DNA of 34,430 nucleotides from Dehalococcoidales bacterium (GTDB lineage: Bacteria > Chloroflexota > Dehalococcoidia > Dehalococcoidales > GCA-2688105). Below, piece after piece: positions 3,401-34,430 of the stretch. The stretch spans positions 1-34,430 of the forward strand of contig DAOWJS010000028.1 in assembly GCA_030640255.1 (NCBI GenBank), read 5' to 3'. How positions within the stretch are numbered: position 1 is the first letter of the stretch; each line of letters begins with the position of its first letter. The position numbers and the translations under genes were made by a program. The notes under the pieces were generated by a model. The model was not told the DNA's origin and did no database searches. It was given only the letters and a program-made list of their open reading frames with translations.

Positions 3401-3750
3401 GGTGTTCCCAGGCTTTTCATATTATATTTGTCTAAAACGCCGGCATCGGCTAAGTCCACCGCTAGATTAAGCCCGGTCTGACCACCGAGGGTGGGCAGTA
3501 GCCCATCGGGACGCTCCCGCTCAATAATGCGGGCGACCATTTCCACGGTGAGCGGCTCAATATAGATAATGTCGGCGATACCCTCATCGGTCATAATGGT
3601 TGCCGGGTTGGAGTTGACCAGCACCGAGGTTACCCCCTCCTCCCGCATCGCCTTGCACGCCTGGGTGCCGGCGTAGTCAAACTCCGCCGCCTGCCCGATA
3701 ACAATCGGCCCCGACCCAATAATTAATACTTTAGATGGTTTCTTGGTCAA
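496..3750 (-). CDS. carB: carbamoyl-phosphate synthase large subunit
   Basis: 1084-aa ORF with duplicated ATP-grasp halves ([21 protein letters not shown] and [19 protein letters not shown]) and an MGS-like C-terminal domain. TTG start at 3750 is preceded by AAGGAG 8 nt upstream. Lies downstream of carA. Confidence 0.97.
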
Positions 3751-4400
3751 GATGTGTGCTCCTTATAAAAGAAATGCGACCAGATGAGAATATCTAATAA
3801 GCGAAGAAGGGAAACGTCATACATATATTCATATTTAGTTGAAATAATCTGCTGTATCTTAGTTAATTCATCTTTGTTTGCATCTATATCTTTTTTTAGT
3901 TCGGAAATACACTTGATAGCCCAATCAGACTCGCTAGTCCATTTCTGGTCTATTATGATGGCTTTGCAGTAATCTATTTCCAATATACTATCAAGAATTG
4001 GTATTACATTTGGTAATTTCTTGTGCAGTATTTTTGTCTTTCTAGCAAGACTCAAATATTTTGTGTCGAATGCTTGTATTAATTCACCAATTTTACCCCA
4101 CGGTATCTTTTCAAAATCGTCAGAGATTTTTGTGTTGTAAGGAATTTTAGAGAGACAGGAGTTTATCTTATTTATTTTTTCAAGGAGCGGTTTAATTACA
4201 AGTGATTCATCATAATAAGGAATTCTAGCACCAAGACTATTACTGGCATCTATAGCCATAAGTATTTGTGCCTTGTTTAAGAAGCTGTTTGTAGGTAGTC
4301 TCATACTGTCATAATATCGGGCTCCGCTTTCCCTGTTCCAGTAATATTCAATTTTCTCAATAGGATTTGAAATCTGGATGTTATTTCTTAGTTTAATCAT
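3747..4400 (-). CDS. hypothetical protein, AT-rich orphan gene (possibly DUF6308-like)
   Basis: 217-aa ORF with a strong SD (AAGGAGGTGA) 5 nt upstream of ATG 4400. Its stop overlaps the carB TTG start (TTGA). By eye it is about one-third G+C, against about half in the flanks. The motifs [17 protein letters not shown] and [11 protein letters not shown] recall my memory of the DUF6308 family; this is not verified. Confidence 0.7.
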
Positions 4401-4420
4401 TACTTCACCTCCTTACCTTC

Positions 4421-4900
4421 ATCTTGTTCTACCTCACCCCCTTTGTCCCCCTCTCCTTCAAAGGAGAGGGGGAGGTTGGGTGTGGAGAGGGGCTTCGCCC
4501 CTCTCAGACTCCCCGTATTAAGTTCTGCCTCACTCGGACTCCCCTTAATCATATCTAGATGTTTCGTCCCTCTCAGGCTCTCCCCACATTCAAGCTTGGG
4601 AGGATTATCCTCTCGGACTCCCCGTATTTTGTTCCGTACCTTTAGGTTCTCCTAAATACTAAGGGTTCAACCCTCTCGGACTCCCCTTATTCAATTTTGT
4701 CTATCTCCCTCCACTCAGGTGGGTTATAGAGAGGTTCAACCTCCCTTTTTAACCATCTCCTTACCCATCAGGAGAGTTTTAGAGAGGCGAAGCCTCTCTT
4801 TTTACATCTTCCCCTTCCCCTTACCCAATCCCCAAGGGGAAGGGGATAAAGGGGATGGGGTTACCACTAAACAGGGGCGAAGCCCCCTAAAACTCCCTGT
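4421..4900. repeat. intergenic hairpin-repeat cluster A (cap, P1, P2, five CTCGGACTCCCC-tailed units, P3 and GGGGATGGGGTTACC)
   Basis: Cap (reverse complement) 4427-4443. P1 palindrome 4447-4472 (CCCCCTCTCCTT..AAGGAGAGGGGG). P2 4485-4505 (GAGAGGGGC-TTC-GCCCCTCTC). Tails end at 4514, 4544, 4585, 4623 and 4686. Hairpins at 4600-4612, 4662-4674, 4731-4743, 4781-4799 and 4874-4886. P3 arms at 4811-4822 and 4834-4845. Track ORFs in this stretch are low-complexity artefacts. Confidence 0.85.
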
Positions 4901-4902
4901 AT

Positions 4903-6000
4903 TCATTTCCCTCCCCTCACCATCTCCAGAAACTTTTCAAAGAGGTAGGTATTGTCCAGGGGGCCGGGGGAGGCTTCGGAGTGGTACTGGATGGAGAAGA
5001 TGGGTAGCTCCTTGTGACGCAAGCCTTCCACCGTACCGTCATTCAGGTTGATATGGCTTACCTCTAGACCATCTTTCAAGGTATCGGGGTCAACGGCGTA
5101 GCCGTGGTTCTGAGCGGTGATATGGATTCGCCCATCACTCAGGTCGCGGACGGGGTGGTTACCGCCGCGATGACCAAACTTCAGCTTGAAGGTCTTGGCA
5201 CCGAATACCCTGCCCAGAATAAGGTGTCCCATACAGATGCCCATTATTGGCTTTTTACCGACAAGTTTCTTAATCGTATCTACTATGTAATCCAGCACTT
5301 CGGGGTTACCCGGACCCGGGGAGAGGAGAATACCGTCGGGCTTCAGGTTCAAGATTTCATCGGCAGTCATGGTGCAGGGCACCGCAGTTACCCGGCAGCC
5401 GTGACCACACATCATGCGCAGTATGCTGTATTTCAAGCCGCAGTCCAGGACGACTATTTTACATGGCGGTGAGGCTGCCTGGCCCGGTTCTGGTTCCCAT
5501 TGATAGGGGGCGTTGGTGGTAACCTGCTTGACGAAATCGGTGGAGCCATAGCCGGGTACTTTCAGCAGTTGCTCCATAGCCTGCTGGGGAGTTTTATCGC
5601 TGGTAATAATGCCCATCATTACCCCGGCCGAGCGGAGTTTGCGGGTGATAGCCCGGGTATCCACGCCACTTATTCCCGGTATGCCATTTTCGACTAGGTA
5701 TTCATGGAGGGTGCCGGTGCTCAGGTAGTGGTTGGGTTGGTAGCACTCCTCCCTGACCACAAAGCCTCTAACCTGGACTTTGTCCGACTCAAAATCCTGC
5801 TCATTTATGCCGTAATTGCCGATAAGGGGGTAGGTGGGAACCACAATCTGTCCGGCGTAGGAGGGGTCGGTTAGCGTTTCCTGATACCCGAACATACTGG
5901 TGTTGAAAACCACCTCACCACAGGCATCAGCCTCAGTCCCAAAGGCATAACCTTCATAAACTGAGCCATCGGCTAAGACTAGTATTGCTTTTTTAGTCAT
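4903..6000 (-). CDS. carA: carbamoyl-phosphate synthase small (glutamine amidotransferase) subunit
   Basis: 365-aa ORF. The N-terminal CPSase small-chain domain begins AILVLADGSVYEGYAFG. Class I GATase motifs are present (PIMGICMGHLIL, then HRGGNHPV and NHGYAV). Confidence 0.97.
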   Translation of the reverse strand: MTKKAILVLADGSVYEGYAFGTEADACGEVVFNTSMFGYQETLTDPSYAGQIVVPTYPLIGNYGINEQDFESDKVQVRGFVVREECYQPNHYLSTGTLHEYLVENGIPGISGVDTRAITRKLRSAGVMMGIITSDKTPQQAMEQLLKVPGYGSTDFVKQVTTNAPYQWEPEPGQAASPPCKIVVLDCGLKYSILRMMCGHGCRVTAVPCTMTADEILNLKPDGILLSPGPGNPEVLDYIVDTIKKLVGKKPIMGICMGHLILGRVFGAKTFKLKFGHRGGNHPVRDLSDGRIHITAQNHGYAVDPDTLKDGLEVSHINLNDGTVEGLRHKELPIFSIQYHSEASPGPLDNTYLFEKFLEMVRGGK

Positions 6001-6007
6001 ATTAGGC

Positions 6008-6333
6008 TTTATCTACCTCACCCCCTTAGGTTTTTATTAGGTAACCCTATCCCCTTTAGTCACTTGATTTGGTGACCCTCCCCCTTTTGTCCCCCTCCCT
6101 TGTTAAGGGAGGGGGAAATTGGTTGTGTGAGAGGGGCGGTGCCCCTCTCTGACTCCCCTTCGAGCTTCCCCGTTAACGGGGGAAGATTTTCTCTGAAGAG
6201 GGGCTTTGCCCCTCTTAAACCCCCCTTCACTATTTTCTTCTTCAAAGGAGAGGGGAGGTATGGGTTTCGGGGGAGCTTCGCCCCTCCAAGCTTCCCCTCA
6301 GAAAATAAATTCCTTATAGAGGCTTTGCCTCTC
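6008..6333. repeat. intergenic hairpin-repeat cluster B (same family and same order as cluster A)
   Basis: Cap (rc) 6008-6028. GGTAACCCTATCCCCTTTAG 6040-6059. P1 6091-6115. P2 6129-6149 with tail TGACTCCCC 6150-6158. Further GC hairpins at 6165-6185, 6196-6216, 6269-6287 (degenerate) and 6318-6332. The stretch 6091-6158 aligns almost base for base with 4447-4514. Confidence 0.85.
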
Positions 6334-6335
6334 CT

Positions 6336-7669
6336 TTAATATTTCCCCTTCGCCTCAACTTTAATTGAGTCATCCTTATAAACTAGCTTTCCCCGGGCTA
6401 TGGTTGCCATTACCATCCCTTTAAGCACTGAGCCAGCCCAAGGGGTATTCTTGCCCTTTGAGGCAAAGGTCTTGGTATCTACCACCCATTCCCTCCCAGG
6501 GTCAAAGATGGTAATATCGGCTGAAGCACCAATAGCTAGTGTGCCCAGTTTTTCATATTTATCACCAATAATCTTTGATGGTTCATAAGTGAGCTTGGCG
6601 ATGAGGGTAGTCAGAGTTAGCTGTCCATCGTGCACTAAACTCATCAGGCTGCCCAAGGCGGTCTCAAATCCACTGATGCCAAAGGGGGCCAGGGCAAACT
6701 CACACCGTTTATCGGCCTCAGTGTGAGGGGCGTGGTCGGTAGCAATAATGTCAATTACATTCTCTTTGAGCCCTTGAATTAATGCTTGGACGTCTCTTCC
6801 GGTTCTTAGCGGTGGATTTACCTTAGCGTTGGTATCATAGCCTATTACCCTATCCTCGGTGAGGGTCAGGTGGTGTGGGGTGACCTCGGCAGTAACCCGG
6901 ATGCCTTTTTCTTTGGCACGACGAATAAGCTCAACCGAGCCTTCAGTGGTAACATGGGCAATGTGTAGCCGACCTCCGGTGAGTTGAGCCAGAGCCAGGT
7001 CACGGGCAACTATAATATCTTCAGCGGCATTAGGTATGCCACGAAGCCCTAATCTGGCTGAGGTTACGCCCTCATTCATCACTCCGCCCTCGGTGAGGGC
7101 AGTATCCTCACAGTGGTCAGTAATCGGCAGGTCCAGGTCGCGGCTACAGTCCAGTGCCTGGCGCATAAGGCGTGAATTCAGAGCTGGTTCACCATCATCA
7201 CTAAAGGCAATCACCCCGGCTGAAGCCAGTTCGTCTAGTTCAGCTAGCTCCGCTCCCTTTCTTTCTTTAGAAATACAGCCTATAGGCAGAACGCGAACCA
7301 CGCCTTCGGTGGCTGCCGTTGATTTGACATAATTTATGGCAGCTTGATTGTCCAGGGGTGGGTTGGTATTAGCCATACAGCAGATAGTGGTAAAGCCGCC
7401 TCTGGCTGCGGCTTGAGTGCCGGTGGCAATGGTTTCCTTCTCTTCAAACCCCGGCTGCCTCAGGTGACAGTGAAGGTCAACAAACCCGGGGCAGACTATC
7501 AGTCCCTGGGCATTAAGGACTTCATACTCGGGGTGGGGTGGGGTTATTTCCCCTCTGCCCAGCCATGAGATTTTGCCGTTGCTGATGAGCAAACTACCGA
7601 TTTCATCGAGCCCCTGGCTGGGGTCGATTATGCGACCGCCATGGATAAGCAAGGAAACTGCTTTGATAT

Positions 7670-7673
<4 letters not shown>
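6336..7673 (-). CDS. pyrC: dihydroorotase
   Basis: 445-aa ORF with the amidohydrolase metal motif DLHCHLRQPG and the later ATDHAPH. Its start overlaps the pyrB stop as ATGA. Confidence 0.95.
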
Positions 7674-9765
<2,092 letters not shown>

Positions 9766-14527: not shown

Positions 14528-14538
14528 TCAAGGGTAGA

Positions 14539-14623
14539 TTGAAGGGGCGAAGCCCCTTCAAAACCCATCCTTCCCCCTCTCCTTTGAAGGAGAGGGGGAT
14601 AAAGGGGGTGAGGTAGATAAAAC
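14539..14623 (+). repeat. hairpin-repeat unit C (P2 - P1 - cap)
   Basis: TTGAAGGGGC-GAA-GCCCCTTCAA at 14539-14561. CCCCCTCTCCTT-TG-AAGGAGAGGGGG at 14573-14598. ATAAAGGGGGTGAGGTAGATAAAAC at 14599-14623. It is collinear with 19641-19727 and with the reverse complement of 4427-4514. Confidence 0.85.
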
Positions 14624-14638
14624 ATTCCTCAATAACTA

Positions 14639-14667
14639 TTGACATTTTACACGGAAGCGTGTATAAT
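14639..14667 (+). promoter_or_regulatory. consensus sigma70-type promoter of mutL (near-leaderless)
   Basis: Perfect TTGACA (14639-14644), a 17-nt spacer, then TATAAT (14662-14667). ATG 14676 follows after 8 nt with no SD. Confidence 0.65.
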
Positions 14668-14675
14668 TAACTATT

Positions 14676-16388
14676 ATGCCTATCAGAGTTTTAGACCCCA
14701 AGGTAGTATCCCGGATTGCCGCCGGGGAGGTGGTGGAGCGGCCGGCCTCGGTGGTGAAGGAGCTGGTGGAGAACTCGCTGGATGCCGGCTCATCCCAGAT
14801 TTCCATTGAGGTCAGGGGTGGTGGGGTAAGCTTAATTAGGGTGATGGATAACGGGGTGGGCATTCCCCCGGGGGAGGTAGAGCTTGCCTTTGCCCGTTAT
14901 GCTACCAGCAAGGTAGGCAGCTTAGAGGATTTGGAGTCTATTTCCAGCCTCGGCTTTCGGGGGGAGGCGTTACCCAGTATCGCCACCGTGGCTGAGGTAG
15001 ACATGGTTACCTGTGCTGCCGGCGAGACGGCAGGCACTTACCTTAGCCTTAAGGACGGCGTTGCCGTTGGTCGGGGAAGCCGGGGACGCTCCCCGGGGAC
15101 GACGATTACGGTGCGGGGTCTATTCCGCAAGCTGCCGGCAAGGTTAAAGTTCCTTAAGTCGCCAGCTACGGAAAATAGCCATATTGCCCAGGTGATAAGT
15201 CAGTATGCCCTTGCCTTCCCCGAGGTCAAATTTACCTTGTTTATTGAGGGCAGGATGGCGCTAACCACGGCAGGTAGTGGTCGGCTAATAGATAGTGTGA
15301 CTCAAGTTCATGGCTTAGAGGTAGCCCAGAATATGCTGGAGATTAAGAATAGGGGGTGGCAGGGCGGGGCAGCAATGGCATCACCCCTGGTAACCGGTAT
15401 GGTAGGCTCGCCGGCAATAAGCCGTTCCCATCGGGGTTACCTCAGCCTCTTTGTCAATCGCCGCTGGATAAACAGCCGACTGGTGGCTCGGGCAGTGGAG
15501 GAGGCTTATCACGGGCTTTTGATGCTGGGGAAACATCCGGTGGCTATCATCAATATTTCACTACCTCCTGAGGAGGTGGATATTAATATTCACCCCACCA
15601 AAATAGAGGTGAAGTTCAGTAACGAGCACATAGTTTTTACCGCTGTCCAGAGGGCAGTCCGACAGGTTTTAATTGAACTGGTGCCGGTGCCTAAGATTGA
15701 GGAGGTAGCTACCACCTATACCTCACCATCACCGCCACGACAAGTATCGTGGCTCTCAGCCGTAGGTGGTGATAGCCTTACTGGTGCGGCGCCGGTAGCT
15801 TCTCAGACACCTACCGTTTCACTGCCGGCACTACGAATACTGGGTCAGCTCTTGAGTAGCTATATTATAGCCGAGGGTCCCGATGGGTTGTATCTTATCG
15901 ACCAGCATGCCGCCCATGAGCGCGTCCTTTTTGAAAAGATAAAATTGCAGCGGTCACGGCAAGAGGTAGAAGTTCAAGGGCTACTTGAACCGGTAACCTT
16001 TGAGGTTAATCCCCAGCAGGAGGAAGTTCTAAAATCACACTATGAAAATCTAGCCGAATTCGGTTTCACCATTGAGCCTTTTGGTGATAGAACCTATCTC
16101 GTCAGGGCGGTGCCAGTTCTGCTTTATGACCAAGATTGGGTGGGAATGCTGAGGGAGTTACTGGATTCCTTATCTGGGGAGGATAAGGATGACTGGGGGG
16201 AAAAGGTAGCTATCTCCATCGCCTGCCACAGTGCGGTAAGGGCTGGGCAGACATTAACTAATGACGAAATGCGCCAACTTATACGGCAACTGGAGCAGGT
16301 AGCCCTTCCCCATACCTGTCCCCATGGCCGACCAACCATGGTTCGTCTCAGCTCGGGACAGCTGAAAAAGGAGTTTGGTAGAAGCTAA
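14676..16388 (+). CDS. mutL: DNA mismatch repair protein MutL
   Basis: 570-aa ORF. The GHKL ATPase N-terminus reads IAAGEVVERPASVVKELVENSLDAG and DNGVGI. The C-terminal dimerisation/endonuclease region includes DQHAAHERVLFE. Confidence 0.95.
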   Translation: MPIRVLDPKVVSRIAAGEVVERPASVVKELVENSLDAGSSQISIEVRGGGVSLIRVMDNGVGIPPGEVELAFARYATSKVGSLEDLESISSLGFRGEALPSIATVAEVDMVTCAAGETAGTYLSLKDGVAVGRGSRGRSPGTTITVRGLFRKLPARLKFLKSPATENSHIAQVISQYALAFPEVKFTLFIEGRMALTTAGSGRLIDSVTQVHGLEVAQNMLEIKNRGWQGGAAMASPLVTGMVGSPAISRSHRGYLSLFVNRRWINSRLVARAVEEAYHGLLMLGKHPVAIINISLPPEEVDINIHPTKIEVKFSNEHIVFTAVQRAVRQVLIELVPVPKIEEVATTYTSPSPPRQVSWLSAVGGDSLTGAAPVASQTPTVSLPALRILGQLLSSYIIAEGPDGLYLIDQHAAHERVLFEKIKLQRSRQEVEVQGLLEPVTFEVNPQQEEVLKSHYENLAEFGFTIEPFGDRTYLVRAVPVLLYDQDWVGMLRELLDSLSGEDKDDWGEKVAISIACHSAVRAGQTLTNDEMRQLIRQLEQVALPHTCPHGRPTMVRLSSGQLKKEFGRS

Positions 16389-18983: not shown

Positions 18984-19615
18984 GAATGTTTACCGGTATT
19001 GTAGAAGAGGTGGGTAGAGTTACTTCGGCACCACCCGGCAAGCTGGTTATTACTGCTAACCGGGTTCTCAAGGGGATGGAGTTGGGGGGAAGTATAGCCG
19101 TTAACGGGGTGTGCCTGACCGTAACCAATTTTAATACTAATTCGTTTTCTGTTGACATAATGCCGGAAACATTAGAGCGGACTAACCTTGGTCTATTAAG
19201 GATAGGGGACGGGGTTAATCTGGAGCGACCCCTATCTCTGGGGGGGGAGTTAGGTGGACATTTAGTTCAGGGTCATATAGATGATACCGGAAGGGTAACC
19301 TCTATTATACCCGATGGTGAGGCAGCGCTCATCAGGTTTGAAGCTCCTCCTGAAGTGATGCGTTATATAGTGGAGAAGGGTTTTATTGCTGTTGATGGGG
19401 TTAGCCTGACCGTGGTGGTTAAAGATACCAGTACATTTCAGGTTTCAGTTGTTGACTATACTCGGGAACATACTACTTTGGGTAATCGGCAGGTAGGCGA
19501 CCTGGTTAATCTGGAGGTAGATATCATTGCCAAATATGTGGAACAACTTAGCTCGGCTTATCACACGGGGATAACGGTTGATTTTTTGCAGGAGCACGGC
19601 TTTTTAGTAAGTTAA
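18980..19615 (+). CDS. ribE: riboflavin synthase alpha chain
   Basis: MFTGIVEE... with the duplicated lumazine-binding repeats (GGSIAVNGVCLTV and FIAVDGVSLTV). The true start is probably ATG 18986, 2 nt after the ribD stop. Confidence 0.95.
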   Translation: MRMFTGIVEEVGRVTSAPPGKLVITANRVLKGMELGGSIAVNGVCLTVTNFNTNSFSVDIMPETLERTNLGLLRIGDGVNLERPLSLGGELGGHLVQGHIDDTGRVTSIIPDGEAALIRFEAPPEVMRYIVEKGFIAVDGVSLTVVVKDTSTFQVSVVDYTREHTTLGNRQVGDLVNLEVDIIAKYVEQLSSAYHTGITVDFLQEHGFLVS

Positions 19616-19640
19616 TTAGTGAGGTCATTTATCAGGGAAG

Positions 19641-19727
19641 TTTGAAGGGGTGAAACCCCTTCAAAACCTATACGTCCCTTCTCCCTTGAAGAAGAGGGGA
19701 AGTAAGGAGGTGAGGTTGATAAATAAA
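19641..19727 (+). repeat. hairpin-repeat unit D (P2 - degenerate P1 - cap)
   Basis: TTTGAAGGGGT-GAA-ACCCCTTCAAA at 19641-19665. A degenerate P1 at 19676-19702. TAAGGAGGTGAGGTTGATAAATAAA at 19703-19727. The architecture matches unit C. Confidence 0.8.
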
Positions 19728-19743
19728 CCCTTAATTTATAGAA

Positions 19744-20244
19744 ATGTGCGAAACTAACATCGAACTATTTAAGGAGGTTCTAGTGAAGAGAACTTTTTTG
19801 ATAGGTATGGTATTAATTCTGATGCTCTTCCTGTTGCCTTCCTGCGCTGCTGGAGTATCTCAGGAAGAGTATGACAGGGTAACTAGCGACCTTGCTGTAG
19901 CTCAGACCCAAATTCAATCATTGGAAGGTGATTTGACCGAAGCAGAAGCACAAATTCAGTCCTTACAGACCGACAAAGAGGTCTCAGAGGAAAAGCGTGC
20001 GGAAGCATTGGCTTATGCCGAGTTCGTCGATGTGCTTCTGTGGCCAGCTTGGAAGAAAGCTGGGATTACTCCCCGCTTCGCATTTGAAGATGAGGTTGAC
20101 TGGCTGGTAGAGCTAAAGAACAGAGCCAGTGACCTAGGAGATACAAAATTAAGTAACTATATTAAGGGATTGGATGAAGCCGCCACATTAGTTGCTCTAT
20201 ATGATTATTGCCTTGGAAGGATAGTAGAGAAAACCCTAAAGTGA
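19744..20244 (+). CDS. hypothetical coiled-coil lipoprotein or secreted protein
   Basis: The likely true start is GTG 19783, which has AAGGAGG 6 nt upstream. The signal peptide ends LLPSC. There is a short coiled-coil repeat (AQTQIQSLEGDL / AEAQIQSLQTD). The gene is inserted between ribE and ribBA. Confidence 0.65.
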   Translation: MCETNIELFKEVLVKRTFLIGMVLILMLFLLPSCAAGVSQEEYDRVTSDLAVAQTQIQSLEGDLTEAEAQIQSLQTDKEVSEEKRAEALAYAEFVDVLLWPAWKKAGITPRFAFEDEVDWLVELKNRASDLGDTKLSNYIKGLDEAATLVALYDYCLGRIVEKTLK

Positions 20245-20293
20245 ACGGATTATCAATTGGGTTTCGCCCATCCCTAAATTCATTCTGTTTTCC

Positions 20294-22112: not shown

Positions 22113-22367
22113 TCAGTCAATAACCTTATAGACGGTATCTCCTCTTCTTACCCGGTCGCTGACTTTGATACCAACATTATCCCCGGTTTTAGCCTCTTTA
22201 ACGTCTACATTATTAATCTGCATTGAGTCAACAGTGAGTTCCATATCGGTGGTGTGACCTTTAATATGGATTTTATCCCCCAGTTTTATCGTCCCTGTTA
22301 GCTCAATACCGGCTACCACCGGTCGGGCAAAGAAGTCGTTGACCTTTCCGATTACCTCCTCAGGCAT
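22113..22367 (-). CDS. stand-alone EF-Tu domain-2-like beta-barrel protein (translation elongation factor-like protein)
   Basis: 84-aa ORF with the RBS AAAGGAGG. The pattern GDKIHIKGHTTDMELTVDSMQINNVDVKEAKTGDNVGIKV...GDTVY resembles domain 2 of translational GTPases. Confidence 0.7.
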   Translation of the reverse strand: MPEEVIGKVNDFFARPVVAGIELTGTIKLGDKIHIKGHTTDMELTVDSMQINNVDVKEAKTGDNVGIKVSDRVRRGDTVYKVID

Positions 22368-22466
22368 TTGGGTACCTCCTTTACCTTTAATTGGGGTAAG
22401 GTTTTTCGGTTGTCCTTACGTTAGTATACGTCAACTAGTCTAAGTAAATCAATATTTAGAGGTCGT

Positions 22467-22894
22467 TTAGCAACCTATCCCCCTGACCCCCTTCCCTTAA
22501 TAAAAGATTGTTAAACAACCCCTCACCCTTTATCCCTCTCCCCTTATGAAGGGGAGAGGGAAGAGAAATTCTCAAAGGGGCTTCGCCCCTTTTAATCCCC
22601 TTTGCTAAAAACTCTTAATAAGAGGGGGAGTGTAGGTAAGAGAGGGGCTTCGCCCCTCTCTAAAATCTCTTCTTTGAAATATATAGGAAGTCTAAGCGGG
22701 GCTAACGCCCCTCTGTTTTACTCCTTCCCCCTCTCCTTTAAAGGAGGGTCAAAGGGAGGCGAAGCCTCCCTTATATAAGCTCCCCTTCCCCTTATCAAGG
22801 GGAAGGGGATAAAGTCCTTGCCTGCTTTGGCAAGGATAAAGGGGATAGGGTTACCTAATAGAAATCTAAGGGGGTGAGGTTAATAAACAATCTC
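22467..22894. repeat. intergenic hairpin-repeat cluster E (mosaic of all module types, with cap-like modules facing outward at both ends)
   Basis: Left end: rc-type modules at 22467-22491 and 22505-22535. P3 at 22534-22560. P2 copies at 22574-22592, 22639-22661, 22698-22711 and 22752-22772. Degenerate P1 at 22727-22748. P3 at 22782-22808. Inserted hairpin at 22815-22836. GATAAAGGGGATAGGGTTACC at 22835-22855. Cap at 22866-22894. Confidence 0.85.
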
Positions 22895-22906
22895 AATATT
22901 TGACCT

Positions 22907-22935
22907 TTGACATACCATTACCTGTCACCTATAAT
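22907..22935 (+). promoter_or_regulatory. consensus sigma70-type promoter abutting the cluster E cap
   Basis: Perfect TTGACA (22907-22912), a 17-nt spacer, then TATAAT (22930-22935). A second TATAAT lies at 22945-22950. The RBS GGAGGGTGA lies at 22957-22965, before TTG 22969. Confidence 0.6.
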
Positions 22936-22968: not shown

Positions 22969-23199
22969 TTGGCTCAGGAAAACGAACCTAATGTGGTCGG
23001 TCAGGAACCAACGCTGGATATTGAACAGATTAAAAGGCATTTGGACATGTTAGACCAGCGTTTAGATAACATCGACTCGGTGGTTACCGCTGTTGTTGAA
23101 CGAGTAATGAAACAACCTATTGCTCTTAATGTAACCTGTCCCTACTGTGGTAAGAACATAGAGATTGCTATTATAGGTAGTCATAAGCCAACAAGATAG
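22969..23199 (+). CDS. small hypothetical protein with a C-terminal CxxC
   Basis: 76-aa ORF with a TTG start, a good RBS and a promoter upstream. It has a helical N-terminal part and the motif CPYCGKNIEI near the C-terminus. I recognise no family. Confidence 0.5.
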   Translation: MAQENEPNVVGQEPTLDIEQIKRHLDMLDQRLDNIDSVVTAVVERVMKQPIALNVTCPYCGKNIEIAIIGSHKPTR

Positions 23200-24522: not shown

Positions 24523-24741
24523 GTGGGTATAATGAAGTTTGCTATTACTCTTGAGCAAGACGAGGACGGATATATCGTAGCCAGTTGTCCTGCGCTTCCT
24601 GGATGTCACTCCCAAGGGAGAACCAGAGAGGAAGCCATTGTCAACATCACAGAAGCTATCCGTGGTTATATAGCTAGTATGCGTAAGCATGGGGAACCGA
24701 TCCCTGTAACCGATGTAGAACAAGTGGAGGTAGCTGTCTAG
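24523..24741 (+). CDS. hicB: HicB-family antitoxin (UPF0150 / RNase H-like fold)
   Basis: MKFAITLEQDEDGYIVASCPALPGCHSQGRTREEAIVNITEAIRGYI is a typical HicB N-terminal domain. The likely true start is ATG 24532. The stop overlaps the GTG of hicA. Confidence 0.85.
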   Translation: MGIMKFAITLEQDEDGYIVASCPALPGCHSQGRTREEAIVNITEAIRGYIASMRKHGEPIPVTDVEQVEVAV

Positions 24742-24965
24742 TGACTCGCCTCCCGCTAATATCGGGAGACGACTTCGTTAAAGCGGTGCACAAGATTGGC
24801 TATGTTTGGGACCATACCGAAGGTAGCCATATGATCTTGCTACACCCTTTGGGGTGAAGATTGTCAGTGCCTAGACATAAAGAGCTGGGGCGAGGCTTAT
24901 TGAGGTCTCTAATTAGGGATGCCGGGCTGAGCAGGGAGGAATTCGTCAGATTACTGCATGAGTAA
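24741..24965 (+). pseudogene. hicA: hicA toxin gene interrupted by an in-frame TGA (codon 39)
   Basis: Manual translation gives VTRLPLISGDDFVKAVHKIGYVWDHTEGSHMILLHPLG*RLSVPRHKELGRGLLRSLIRDAGLSREEFVRLLHE. The stop TGA is at 24855-24857, in the same frame on both sides. The sequence is HicA-like across its full length. Confidence 0.75.
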
Positions 24966-24997
24966 TTTGAATCCGAGGCTAAAAGTTCTGTCTATCG

Positions 24998-34141: not shown

Positions 34142-34171
34142 ATTATAGTGCCTTGAGGCTCATCTTGGCAA
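34142..34171 (-). promoter_or_regulatory. candidate promoter of the MFS gene (short leader), abutting cluster F
   Basis: The minus strand reads TTGCCA (34166-34171), an 18-nt spacer, then TATAAT (34142-34147). Fifteen nt with no SD lie before ATG 34126. The repeat end GGGTTAAACAATCTC lies 5 nt upstream of the -35 box. Confidence 0.5.
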
Positions 34172-34176
34172 TCTAA

Positions 34177-34390
34177 GAGATTGTTTAACCCTATCCCCTG
34201 TATCCCCTTCCCCTTATCAAGGGGAAGGGGAGATAATTTCTTTAGAGGGGCTACGCCCCTCTAAAACTCTCCCATTATTGCTCCAGAGTAAGGAGAGTTA
34301 AAGAGAGGCTTCGCCTCTCTTATATAACTAATTCCCCTTCCCCTTATCAAGGGGGAAGGGGATAAAGGGGATGGGGTTACCAAATAAAAA
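34177..34390. repeat. intergenic hairpin-repeat cluster F (two P3-bearing units with imperfect inverted ends)
   Basis: Left end GAGATTGTTTAACCCTATCCCCTGTAT at 34177-34203. P3 at 34204-34230. P2 at 34242-34264. AGAGAGGC-TTC-GCCTCTCT at 34302-34320. P3 at 34334-34361. ATAAAGGGGATGGGGTTACC at 34362-34381. Confidence 0.85.
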
Positions 34391-34430
34391 TGAGAGAAAT
34401 AGAAGCTAGCGCCATTACTCAAGTTGTATC

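Follow-up and report, generated by a model that had tools for sequence, protein, structure and literature searches.

The 34,430-nt window analysed here (contig DAOWJS010000028.1) is a chromosomal piece of a Dehalococcoidia bacterium, with coding DNA 72-83% identical to contigs of Dehalococcoidales metagenome-assembled genomes (MAGs). Our subject is cluster E, a block of short repeats in the 601-nt intergenic region of two divergent genes encoding 84 and 76 amino acids (Table 1). A sequence-only reading of this DNA had described the block as a mosaic resembling miniature transposable elements with inverted repeats (MITEs) or bacterial interspersed mosaic elements (BIMEs), a view that our analysis largely supports. 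It had also proposed that the block fills the whole divergent promoter region. We found instead that 91 and 74 nt remain uncovered, and that these flanks hold both core promoters. The right end had been placed correctly at 22894, but the left end is 22459, not 22467; both boundaries are fixed by the point at which conservation ends in ~60 related termini (GAG/CTC) and by comparison of empty with filled orthologous alleles. An RNA-level role for the block is unlikely, because both promoters fire away from it and it is in neither mRNA. Its coding capacity amounts to spurious open reading frames (ORFs) of 39 and 58 amino acids, and a search against Rfam returned no family at threshold.

Comparing the same intergenic region in relatives, a check that the sequence-only reading had called for, showed it to be usually empty, with elements of various sizes at one point. 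We collected 80 metagenome loci (L numbers below) carrying an ortholog of the 84-aa protein (80-89% identity), 67 of which keep the divergent 76-aa gene. The intergenic region is no longer than 215 nt in 48 of the 67 (median ~171 nt) and expanded in 19. Family elements all lie at a single point, a ~25-nt A/T-rich spacer between both -35 boxes, and this is the one place in the 170-nt region where an insertion breaks no core promoter. The boxes themselves are invariant across orthologous loci (TTGATT and TATACT, read as AAATCAA and GTATAC; TTGACA-17-TATAAT). Alleles range from empty (L114, L117, L110 and many others) through a solo right terminus (L122), an 81-nt palindromic mini-element (L136), forms of 165-175 nt (L121, L134, L150, L161, L130) and one of ~250 nt (L158) to the 436 nt of the window. 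Cluster E is an occupied, expanded allele of a site that both promoters can do without, and its interior has altered since the first occupation of that site.

The repeats in this block belong to a family that we surveyed by exact match to the 22-mer GGATAAAGGGGATRGGGTTACC, taking one genome per species. The 22-mer occurs in more than 104 contigs of at least 45 species-level assemblies, nearly all labelled Dehalococcoidales, Dehalococcoidia or Dehalococcoidaceae. In the matched loci, repeat-rich segments are most often 80-100 nt long and tail off to ~340 nt, with cluster E at the large end; the six intergenic clusters in the window that share modules together make up ~4.9% of it. The 76 canonical copies align to one architecture, a basic unit of 85-120 nt comprising a lead, a GC hairpin (H2), an AT spacer, a second hairpin (H1), a cap and a terminus. 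The lead reads GGGGAGTCTAAG with variants such as GGGTAGATTGA and GGAGAGTCAAAG. H2 is AGAGGGGC-GAA-GCCCCTCT, mostly GGGGC-GAA-GCCCC, and is separated from H1 by an A/T spacer of ~12 nt, while the purine-rich cap resembles the H1 3' arm. Long copies add TAATAAAAATCT, a second cap (AAGGGGGTGAGGT) and the end TAAACAATCTC. H1 and cap co-vary across four subfamilies: arm CCCCTTCCCC with cap GGGGATAGGGTTACC in subfamily 1, CCCCCTCTCC with GGGGGTGAGGTAGATAAA in subfamily 2, CCCTCTCCCC with GGGTGAGGGGTTGTT in subfamily 3 and CCCCCTTCCC with TCAGGGGGATAGGTTGCTAAA in subfamily 4. The consensus fold has 18 pairs, with compensatory changes in 10 of them.

The outer end of the unit has a sharp boundary. 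A terminal motif, GAGATTGTTTA, together with a C-rich cap, was found in other genomes at ~60 ends of elements; GAG is the exact limit of conservation, and the preceding sequences are unrelated and mostly A/T-rich. Full-length copies carry the motif (reverse complement GAGATTGTTTA) inverted at both ends. On the lead side of single elements we found a weaker inverted copy of the terminus, such as GAGGTGTTTAATTAAGGGTAG of L068 and GAGGTCATTTATCAGGG of cluster D, and both inverted ends are visible in the single elements L068 and L136. The true inverted repeat spans only ~11-14 nt, the longer cap similarity being modular. A G-quadruplex was considered as a general feature and rejected, since the motif fits subfamilies 1 and 3 only; cluster E holds one instance, on the minus strand at 22519-22543. 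Other repeats share these neighbourhoods. A second family, of CCCACCCTCCCACCCTACAGG-type G/C tracts, occupies the same inter-promoter site in some lineages (L128, L140, L163), and a third, palindromic repeat (GAGATTGCTTCGG...CGCAATGAC) adjoins elements of the cluster E family at L018, L044, L098 and L118.

Set against this architecture, cluster E resolves into four elements and a private insertion (Table 1). Its left half, E1, aligns with uninterrupted copies at L071, L093, L008 and L011 and with the orthologous allele L130; the right half of E1 was placed by alignment with intact copies and orthologous alleles. Between the halves lies E2, a complete element that is found neither in four intact copies of other genomes nor in the orthologous alleles, is bordered by a duplicated TTAATAA (22497-22503 and 22615-22621, with the heptamer also on both sides in L054) and is 91% identical to a free-standing copy, L097 2022-2111. 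The partial unit E3, whose degenerate hairpin runs on with its 3' arm into the E4 lead, is present at the matching place in L063 (86% identity) and L011 and absent in L071 and L012. E4 is nearly invariant over 8 loci and at least 5 species up to ...AATCTC, beyond which the flanks diverge. The 27-nt insertion was seen in the window only, being absent in all 7 other right arms aligned, and it leaves GATAAAG at 22808-22814 and again at 22835-22841. The minus-strand elements of the left arm and the plus-strand elements of the right arm stand lead-to-lead with caps outward, and the whole folds far better than shuffled sequence (DNA z = -9.5, RNA z = -10.3). The two 13-bp, four GGGGC/GCCCC-type and one degenerate hairpin that the earlier reading had counted are all present; one further hairpin had been missed.

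Table 1 Coordinates of cluster E, its components and flanks, and of the related repeat clusters in the window
Feature	Position	Strand	Description
84-aa gene	22113-22367	minus	Left neighbour of cluster E; EF-Tu domain-2 fold
Promoter-like sequence	22423-22452	minus	TTGATT-18-TATACT (9/12), for the 84-aa gene; outside cluster E
Direct repeat, left copy	22451-22457		AATATTT flanking cluster E
Cluster E	22459-22894		436 nt; composite of MITE-like elements; terminal motifs at both ends face outward
E1, left half	22459-22503	minus	Subfamily 4
E1 terminus	22459-22469	minus	GAGGTCGTTTA
E1 cap D	22470-22486	minus	GCAACCTATCCCCCTGA
E1 H1 5' arm	22487-22496	minus	CCCCCTTCCC
E1 H1 loop	22497-22503	minus	TTAATAA
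E2	22504-22614	minus	Complete 111-nt subfamily-3 element nested inside the H1 loop of E1; terminus AAGATTGTTAA, cap C, two hairpins, inner end (reverse complement GAGTTTTTAGCAA)
E2 hairpin	22533-22561		13-bp, perfect
E2 hairpin	22576-22590		GGGGC/GCCCC type
E1, right half	22615-22670	minus	Second TTAATAA, H1 3' arm remnant GAGGGGG, spacer AGTGTAGGTAAG, H2, CTAAAATCTC
E1 H2	22641-22659	minus	Includes GGGGC/GCCCC-type hairpin 22643-22657
E3	22685-22748	plus	Extra partial unit; lead AGGAAGTCTAAG
E3 H2	22698-22711	plus	GGGGC/GCCCC type
E3 degenerate hairpin	22726-22748	plus	
E4	22742-22894	plus	Right arm; subfamily 1, long form; lead GGAGGGTCAAAG
E4 H2	22753-22771	plus	GGGGC/GCCCC type
E4 H1	22781-22809	plus	13-bp, perfect
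Private insertion	22815-22841	plus	27 nt; hairpin CCTTGCC-TGCTTT-GGCAAGG and duplicated GATAAAG; splits the H1-cap B junction
Further hairpin	22816-22835		Not in the sequence-only reading
E4 cap B	22842-22858	plus	
E4 cap A	22868-22880	plus	AAGGGGGTGAGGT
E4 terminus	22884-22894	plus	TAAACAATCTC
Direct repeat, right copy	22895-22901		AATATTT flanking cluster E
Sigma-70 type promoter	22907-22935	plus	TTGACA-17-TATAAT (12/12, perfect consensus), for the 76-aa gene; outside cluster E
76-aa gene	22969-23199	plus	Right neighbour of cluster E
Cluster A	4428-4910		Shares modules with cluster E
Cluster B	6008-6340		Shares modules with cluster E
Cluster C	14531-14621		Shares modules with cluster E
Cluster D	19634-19723		Shares modules with cluster E
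Cluster F	34170-34391		Shares modules with cluster E

We then considered how the ends of the block relate to each other. The sequences quoted in the earlier reading all lie where it placed them: 22505-22535 is AGATTGTTAAACAACCCCTCACCCTTTATCC, the reverse complement of 22866-22894 is GAGATTGTTTATTAACCTCACCCCCTTAG, and 22467-22491 has the core CCTATCCCC in common with the reverse complement of 22834-22858. These matches had been taken for two interleaved inverted pairs. Their similarity is indeed the highest, but in copies that lack the nested insert (L071, L011, L130) the structural pairing is different, and the interleaving is an artefact of joining the wrong ends. On the outside, 22459-22491 pairs with 22866-22894; 22504-22535 belongs to nested E2 as its terminus, and full-length right arms regularly contain cap B internally. 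That the block appears to have a long terminal inverted repeat follows from its two arms lying lead-to-lead with caps outward. In the best end-to-end inverted alignment, 22459-22484 (GAGGTCGTTTAGCAACCTATCCCCCT) matches the reverse complement of 22869-22894 (GAGATTGTTTATTAACCTCACCCCCT) at 20 of 26 positions. The inverted similarity claimed for the ends therefore exists (p ~0.009 against 2000 shuffles) but is no better than matches to other window clusters (46/462 windows), because the same modules recur there. Taken alone, the end similarity of cluster E is real, if only modestly significant; what gives it weight is recurrence elsewhere.

This modest significance is what could be said for chance similarity in low-complexity DNA rich in G/C tracts, or for an assembly artefact. 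Both are already refuted, and we give them next to no credence: the same modules occur in the same order in many genomes with unrelated flanks, and independent assemblies cover both edges of cluster E at 99.5-99.9% identity. Short-read assembly does falter inside the block. Five metagenome contigs of the same population (L001-L005; 99.5-99.9% identity) all end within it, with breaks at 22499, 22503, 22572, 22641 and 22869, and L004 begins with a 64-nt stretch duplicating window 22651-22714, apparently misjoined within the repeat. Separately, a ~100-nt unit made up of a gene 3' end and the first part of an element (GAGTTCGTTTATCAAGGGTAGTTTGAAGGGGCAAAGCCCC) stands in three tandem copies at L011 6980-7281 and in none in the ortholog L071; it may be a real duplication or an assembly artefact.

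Recurrence elsewhere also bears on how cluster E was assembled. The 175-nt allele L130 has the window's junctions and left arm (GAGGTCGTTTAGCAACC...), an intact H1 hairpin and a simpler right part; compared with it, the window adds the nested 111-nt element, the extra central module, a different right arm and the private 27-nt insertion. We therefore rejected the arrival of cluster E as a single MITE in one piece. Since L130 shares junctions and left arm while its interior is simpler, the interior has changed in place or by recombination. The nested insertion, the extra module, the private insertion and the allelic series at the orthologous site bear out the earlier suggestion that more than one event built the block.

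The same terminal pair was found bounding blocks at other loci, the absence of which would have counted against the earlier reading: a cap-D end and a cap-A end enclose 220-440 nt at L071 (the minimal, 261-nt form), L008, L015, L103 and L012. More generally, among neighbouring elements no more than 450 nt apart at 105 loci, caps face outward in 19 pairs and inward in 1, and 21 pairs are in tandem. The nested composite itself recurs at L012, L019, L036 and L054, four contigs of one MAG from another species than the window, with the insert at an identical position and secondary deletions in part of them. These loci are non-orthologous and differently flanked (L012 adjoins a tRNA), and therefore the composite order spreads between loci. 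It may do so either as a transposing composite or through gene conversion among copies that share outer arms; the data fit either and separate neither. The verdict 'not a single element' consequently holds for the origin of cluster E but not necessarily for its spread.

Evidence of movement comes from filled and empty orthologous sites, which mark a dispersed multi-copy family with presence/absence differences. In a clean pair, L068 holds a lone element of 106 nt whose termini, AGAGTGTTTATC/GGGAGGTGTTTAAT, are inverted and which is accompanied by an 8/8 duplication, TCTCCTTG, at a site that is empty in L095. L084 has an 11-bp flank repeat, and exact 7-mer flank repeats with a terminus-like inner end numbered 4, versus 0-1 in shifted controls. 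A TA duplication of the IS630 type was tried and fits L071 only. For cluster E, the search for target-site duplications that the sequence-only reading had proposed turned up a repeated heptamer around nested E2 (TTAATAA) but no countable duplication around the whole block. We rejected the flanking AATATTT as a duplication, since the closest empty alleles (L114, L117, L113) hold both copies, 9 nt apart.

Taken together, these findings make it probable that at cluster E one insertion site is occupied by a non-autonomous, MITE-like, Dehalococcoidia-specific repeat family that has grown there as a mosaic. Elements would insert into A/T-rich intergenic DNA, here the spacer between back-to-back -35 boxes. 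We infer that a trans-acting DNA transposase mobilised them through their terminal inverted repeats and left duplications of 7-8 bp, and that the interior was then probably reshuffled by recombination or gene conversion between dispersed copies. Such reshuffling would explain both the same composite order at unrelated loci and orthologues that differ inside fixed termini. Lead-to-lead, caps-outward pairing appears to be a strongly preferred arrangement in the family and would yield the long apparent inverted repeat.

Several observations weigh against this interpretation. A clear duplication is absent at most outward-facing terminal pairs, and the AATATTT pair, being either native or the footprint of a loss, is not countable as a duplication from the insertion of cluster E. 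Terminus-like remnants are present in several 'empty' sites (L072, L032, L051/L085, L122); they may be what is left of lost elements, or may reflect a target preference for terminus-like sequence. Some presence/absence differences may thus be losses. No Pfam transposase was found in the 34-kb window, and no transposase with matching ends lies between distant outward-facing termini in 0.7 Mb of loci. Copies between co-directional genes are sense in 44 cases and antisense in 9, and, between species, orthologous copies share 87-99% identity against 73-83% for the neighbouring coding DNA. This orientation bias and this conservation above coding DNA are more than a purely selfish element needs.

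Some related details deserve record. Short terminus-like sequences in empty sites include GAGATTGTTTTAGCC, right behind the TilS stop codon (L072 3659-3663), GGTCGTTGCCAAG, AAGGGGAAGAGGTTGATAAACAAG and GGTTGATAAGTAATCTC. An autonomous partner between distant outward-facing termini was rejected, the enclosed genes being ordinary (TilS, a CNNM-type protein, an AlaRS fragment). The reconstructed empty site had no exact match in the JGI metagenomes, an outcome that carries no information.

The bias and conservation suit a different account, in which these are host-associated repeats of the repetitive extragenic palindromic (REP)/BIME type. Extragenic palindromes would spread by a single-strand transposase like the REP-associated tyrosine transposases (RAYTs) or by recombination, and would be retained for the stability of upstream mRNA, transcription termination or the binding of nucleoid or topology proteins, with cluster E as a BIME-like mosaic. 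In its favour, copies are retained at orthologous sites in different species with higher conservation than coding DNA and are biased in orientation relative to transcription, the GC-rich hairpins have conserved stems and variable loops, and the clusters are mosaics with alternating orientation. The H2 loop GCGAAGC, an unusually stable DNA mini-hairpin, counts on the same side. We nevertheless think this account unlikely. The elements end in terminal inverted repeats and clean cases show duplications of 7-8 bp, both features that REPs lack; no GTAG-type 5' tetranucleotide is conserved across copies, a RAYT gene was not seen in the window, and cluster E is in neither mRNA, with both promoters pointing away.

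Position relative to genes raises the further question of function. The cap side is toward a gene start 99 times and toward a gene end 33 times. Cap A is one mismatch from AAGGAGGTGA and, in at least 8 loci, precedes the ATG of a long ORF by 7-9 nt; cap-to-start-codon distances are otherwise spread over 1-350 nt. These patterns of orientation, cap position and conservation fit selection on orientation or function, and also fit concerted evolution between copies. In a speculative and, in our view, doubtful proposal, the family would act across the clade as an intergenic 'punctuation' module kept by selection in streamlined Dehalococcoidia genomes, the purine-rich cap also serving the downstream gene as Shine-Dalgarno sequence or 5' leader, the hairpins protecting or terminating the upstream transcript, the H1 3' arm and cap alternatively forming a G-quadruplex (GGGGAAGGGGATAAAGGGGATAGGG), and recombination between copies moving small accessory genes into conserved operons. 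As an explanation of cluster E, the corresponding idea is that selected, domesticated cis-acting units supply a hairpin to the upstream gene and a ribosome-binding site (RBS) or 5' leader to the downstream one, and that clusters such as E are by-products of turnover. The excess of sense copies, the cap side facing gene starts, cap A placed just upstream of ATG and a core sequence near-invariant across many species would agree with it. We regard it as quite improbable, given the wide spread of the remaining cap-to-start distances, copy content that varies freely among lineages and orthologous cluster E sites that are mostly empty with the same promoters, so that the block is dispensable here.

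The loci with cap A (GGGGGTGAGGT) followed by ATG include L020, L068, L081, L083, L095, L099 and L064, where it would serve as a Shine-Dalgarno sequence; in the window, the carA start is 14 nt from cap A (6000-6027). Accessory-gene entry would have two examples in the window. The first is the DUF6308 gene that interrupts carA-carB, with repeat clusters A and B alongside (regions 3747-4910 and 6008-6340); orthologous regions in L020 and L081 keep the outer elements of cluster A and have different genes at the DUF6308 position. The second is the ORF at 19744-20244 between ribE and ribBA, where 19615-20278 (cluster D plus the ORF) is a presence/absence polymorphism. In L003, from a 99.5% identical population, ribE leads straight to ribBA with ~30 nt between; in L002 a shorter ORF is fused with the repeat, in the related L042 there is a gap of 55 nt, and the whole repeat-ORF unit has a homolog in another genome (L103 674-1354). 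The repeats may mark entry sites of small accessory genes in conserved operons.

Elsewhere the window carries housekeeping genes: those for pyrimidine synthesis (carB, carA, pyrC and a pyrB-pyrI fusion), uvrD, mutL, a riboflavin operon (ribD/ribE/ribBA/ribH), a BioY transporter gene and tRNA-Val. The aspartate carbamoyltransferase ORF at 7670-9091 appears to be the fused pyrB-pyrI, with catalytic OTCace domains and a PyrI C-terminal metal-binding domain. Directly 3' of the cluster C repeat is a perfect TTGACA-17-TATAAT (14640-14678), and the mutL ATG only ~8 nt past its -10 box suggests that the mutL transcript could be leaderless. On near-identical contig L004 (1937-2370, mapping to ~24533-24966 of the window), a HicB-like antitoxin/HicA toxin pair is called between tRNA-Val and a DUF1616 gene, from ORFs of <80 aa.

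Our literature search found no mention of these sequences, nor of MITE or REP elements in Dehalococcoidia, and the survey documents a previously undescribed repeat family. With ~5% of the window made up of this family, and with short-read assemblies of the same population breaking at it, the repeats bear directly on the fragmentation seen in MAGs of Dehalococcoidia. The alleles at one orthologous site (empty, solo end, 81, 175, 250 and 436 nt) form a series that clearly records, in nature, mosaic growth inside fixed termini. Orientation bias, an RBS-like cap and conservation above coding DNA make the family a candidate for studying how mobile repeats are domesticated in small genomes.

Some known systems were set aside. 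Cluster E is no CRISPR (short palindromic repeats, clustered and regularly interspaced) array: its repeats differ in type, orientation and spacing, and the only match, to CRISPR-DR35, is at chance level (19 bits). Integron attC sites or cassettes were rejected because units lie between housekeeping genes throughout the window, with no cassette array. The Rfam GA-cis RNA (RF02987) matched 22739-22819 over its full length at 26.7 bits (E = 0.0005-0.002), below the gathering score of 34.7; this match is driven by the GGAGG...GGGGCGAAGCCCC hairpin, and canonical copies from 18 other loci gave none at threshold.

The closest parallels are prokaryotic MITEs, such as Correia/NEMIS of Neisseria, Chunjie of Geobacter and QMITE of Coxiella (PMC10969869). 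Like them, the present elements are <500 bp, non-coding and multi-copy, with terminal inverted repeats, A/T-rich intergenic targets, direct repeats around the younger copies, numerous truncated or partial ones, strong predicted folding and presence/absence at orthologous sites (PMC10969869). The cluster measures 436 nt and its units 81-175 nt; coding capacity is lacking, termini are inverted and dispersed copies differ in presence, while target-site duplications were seen in some copies only (L068 8/8, E2 7/7, L084 11 bp). Unlike MITEs, the family yielded no parent insertion sequence in 0.7 Mb of loci, has four subfamilies with co-varying hairpin and cap and a marked orientation bias to genes, commonly forms lead-to-lead dimers and hairpin-loop nests, and shares exact 22-mers among at least 45 species, which is unusually wide. 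With the BIMEs and REPs of Escherichia coli it has in common mosaic intergenic clusters, often after genes, of GC-rich palindromic units in alternating orientation with short conserved motifs between; clusters A, B, E and F of the window alternate in this way. Its units are longer than REPs, which are imperfect palindromes of 20-40 nt, and consist of two hairpins and a cap with inverted termini and duplications; the leads vary, and beside the hairpins no tetranucleotide is invariant as the GTAG-like 5' one of REPs would be. BOX elements of Streptococcus pneumoniae have the modular structure boxA-boxB(n)-boxC. Compared by description rather than by sequence, the present family is likewise modular and intergenic, with variable internal modules between fixed ends and strong secondary structure; we know of no reported hairpin-loop nesting or inverted-dimer preference in BOX. 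Elements of this kind are well known; what cluster E and its relatives represent is a new family among them, not a new kind of system.

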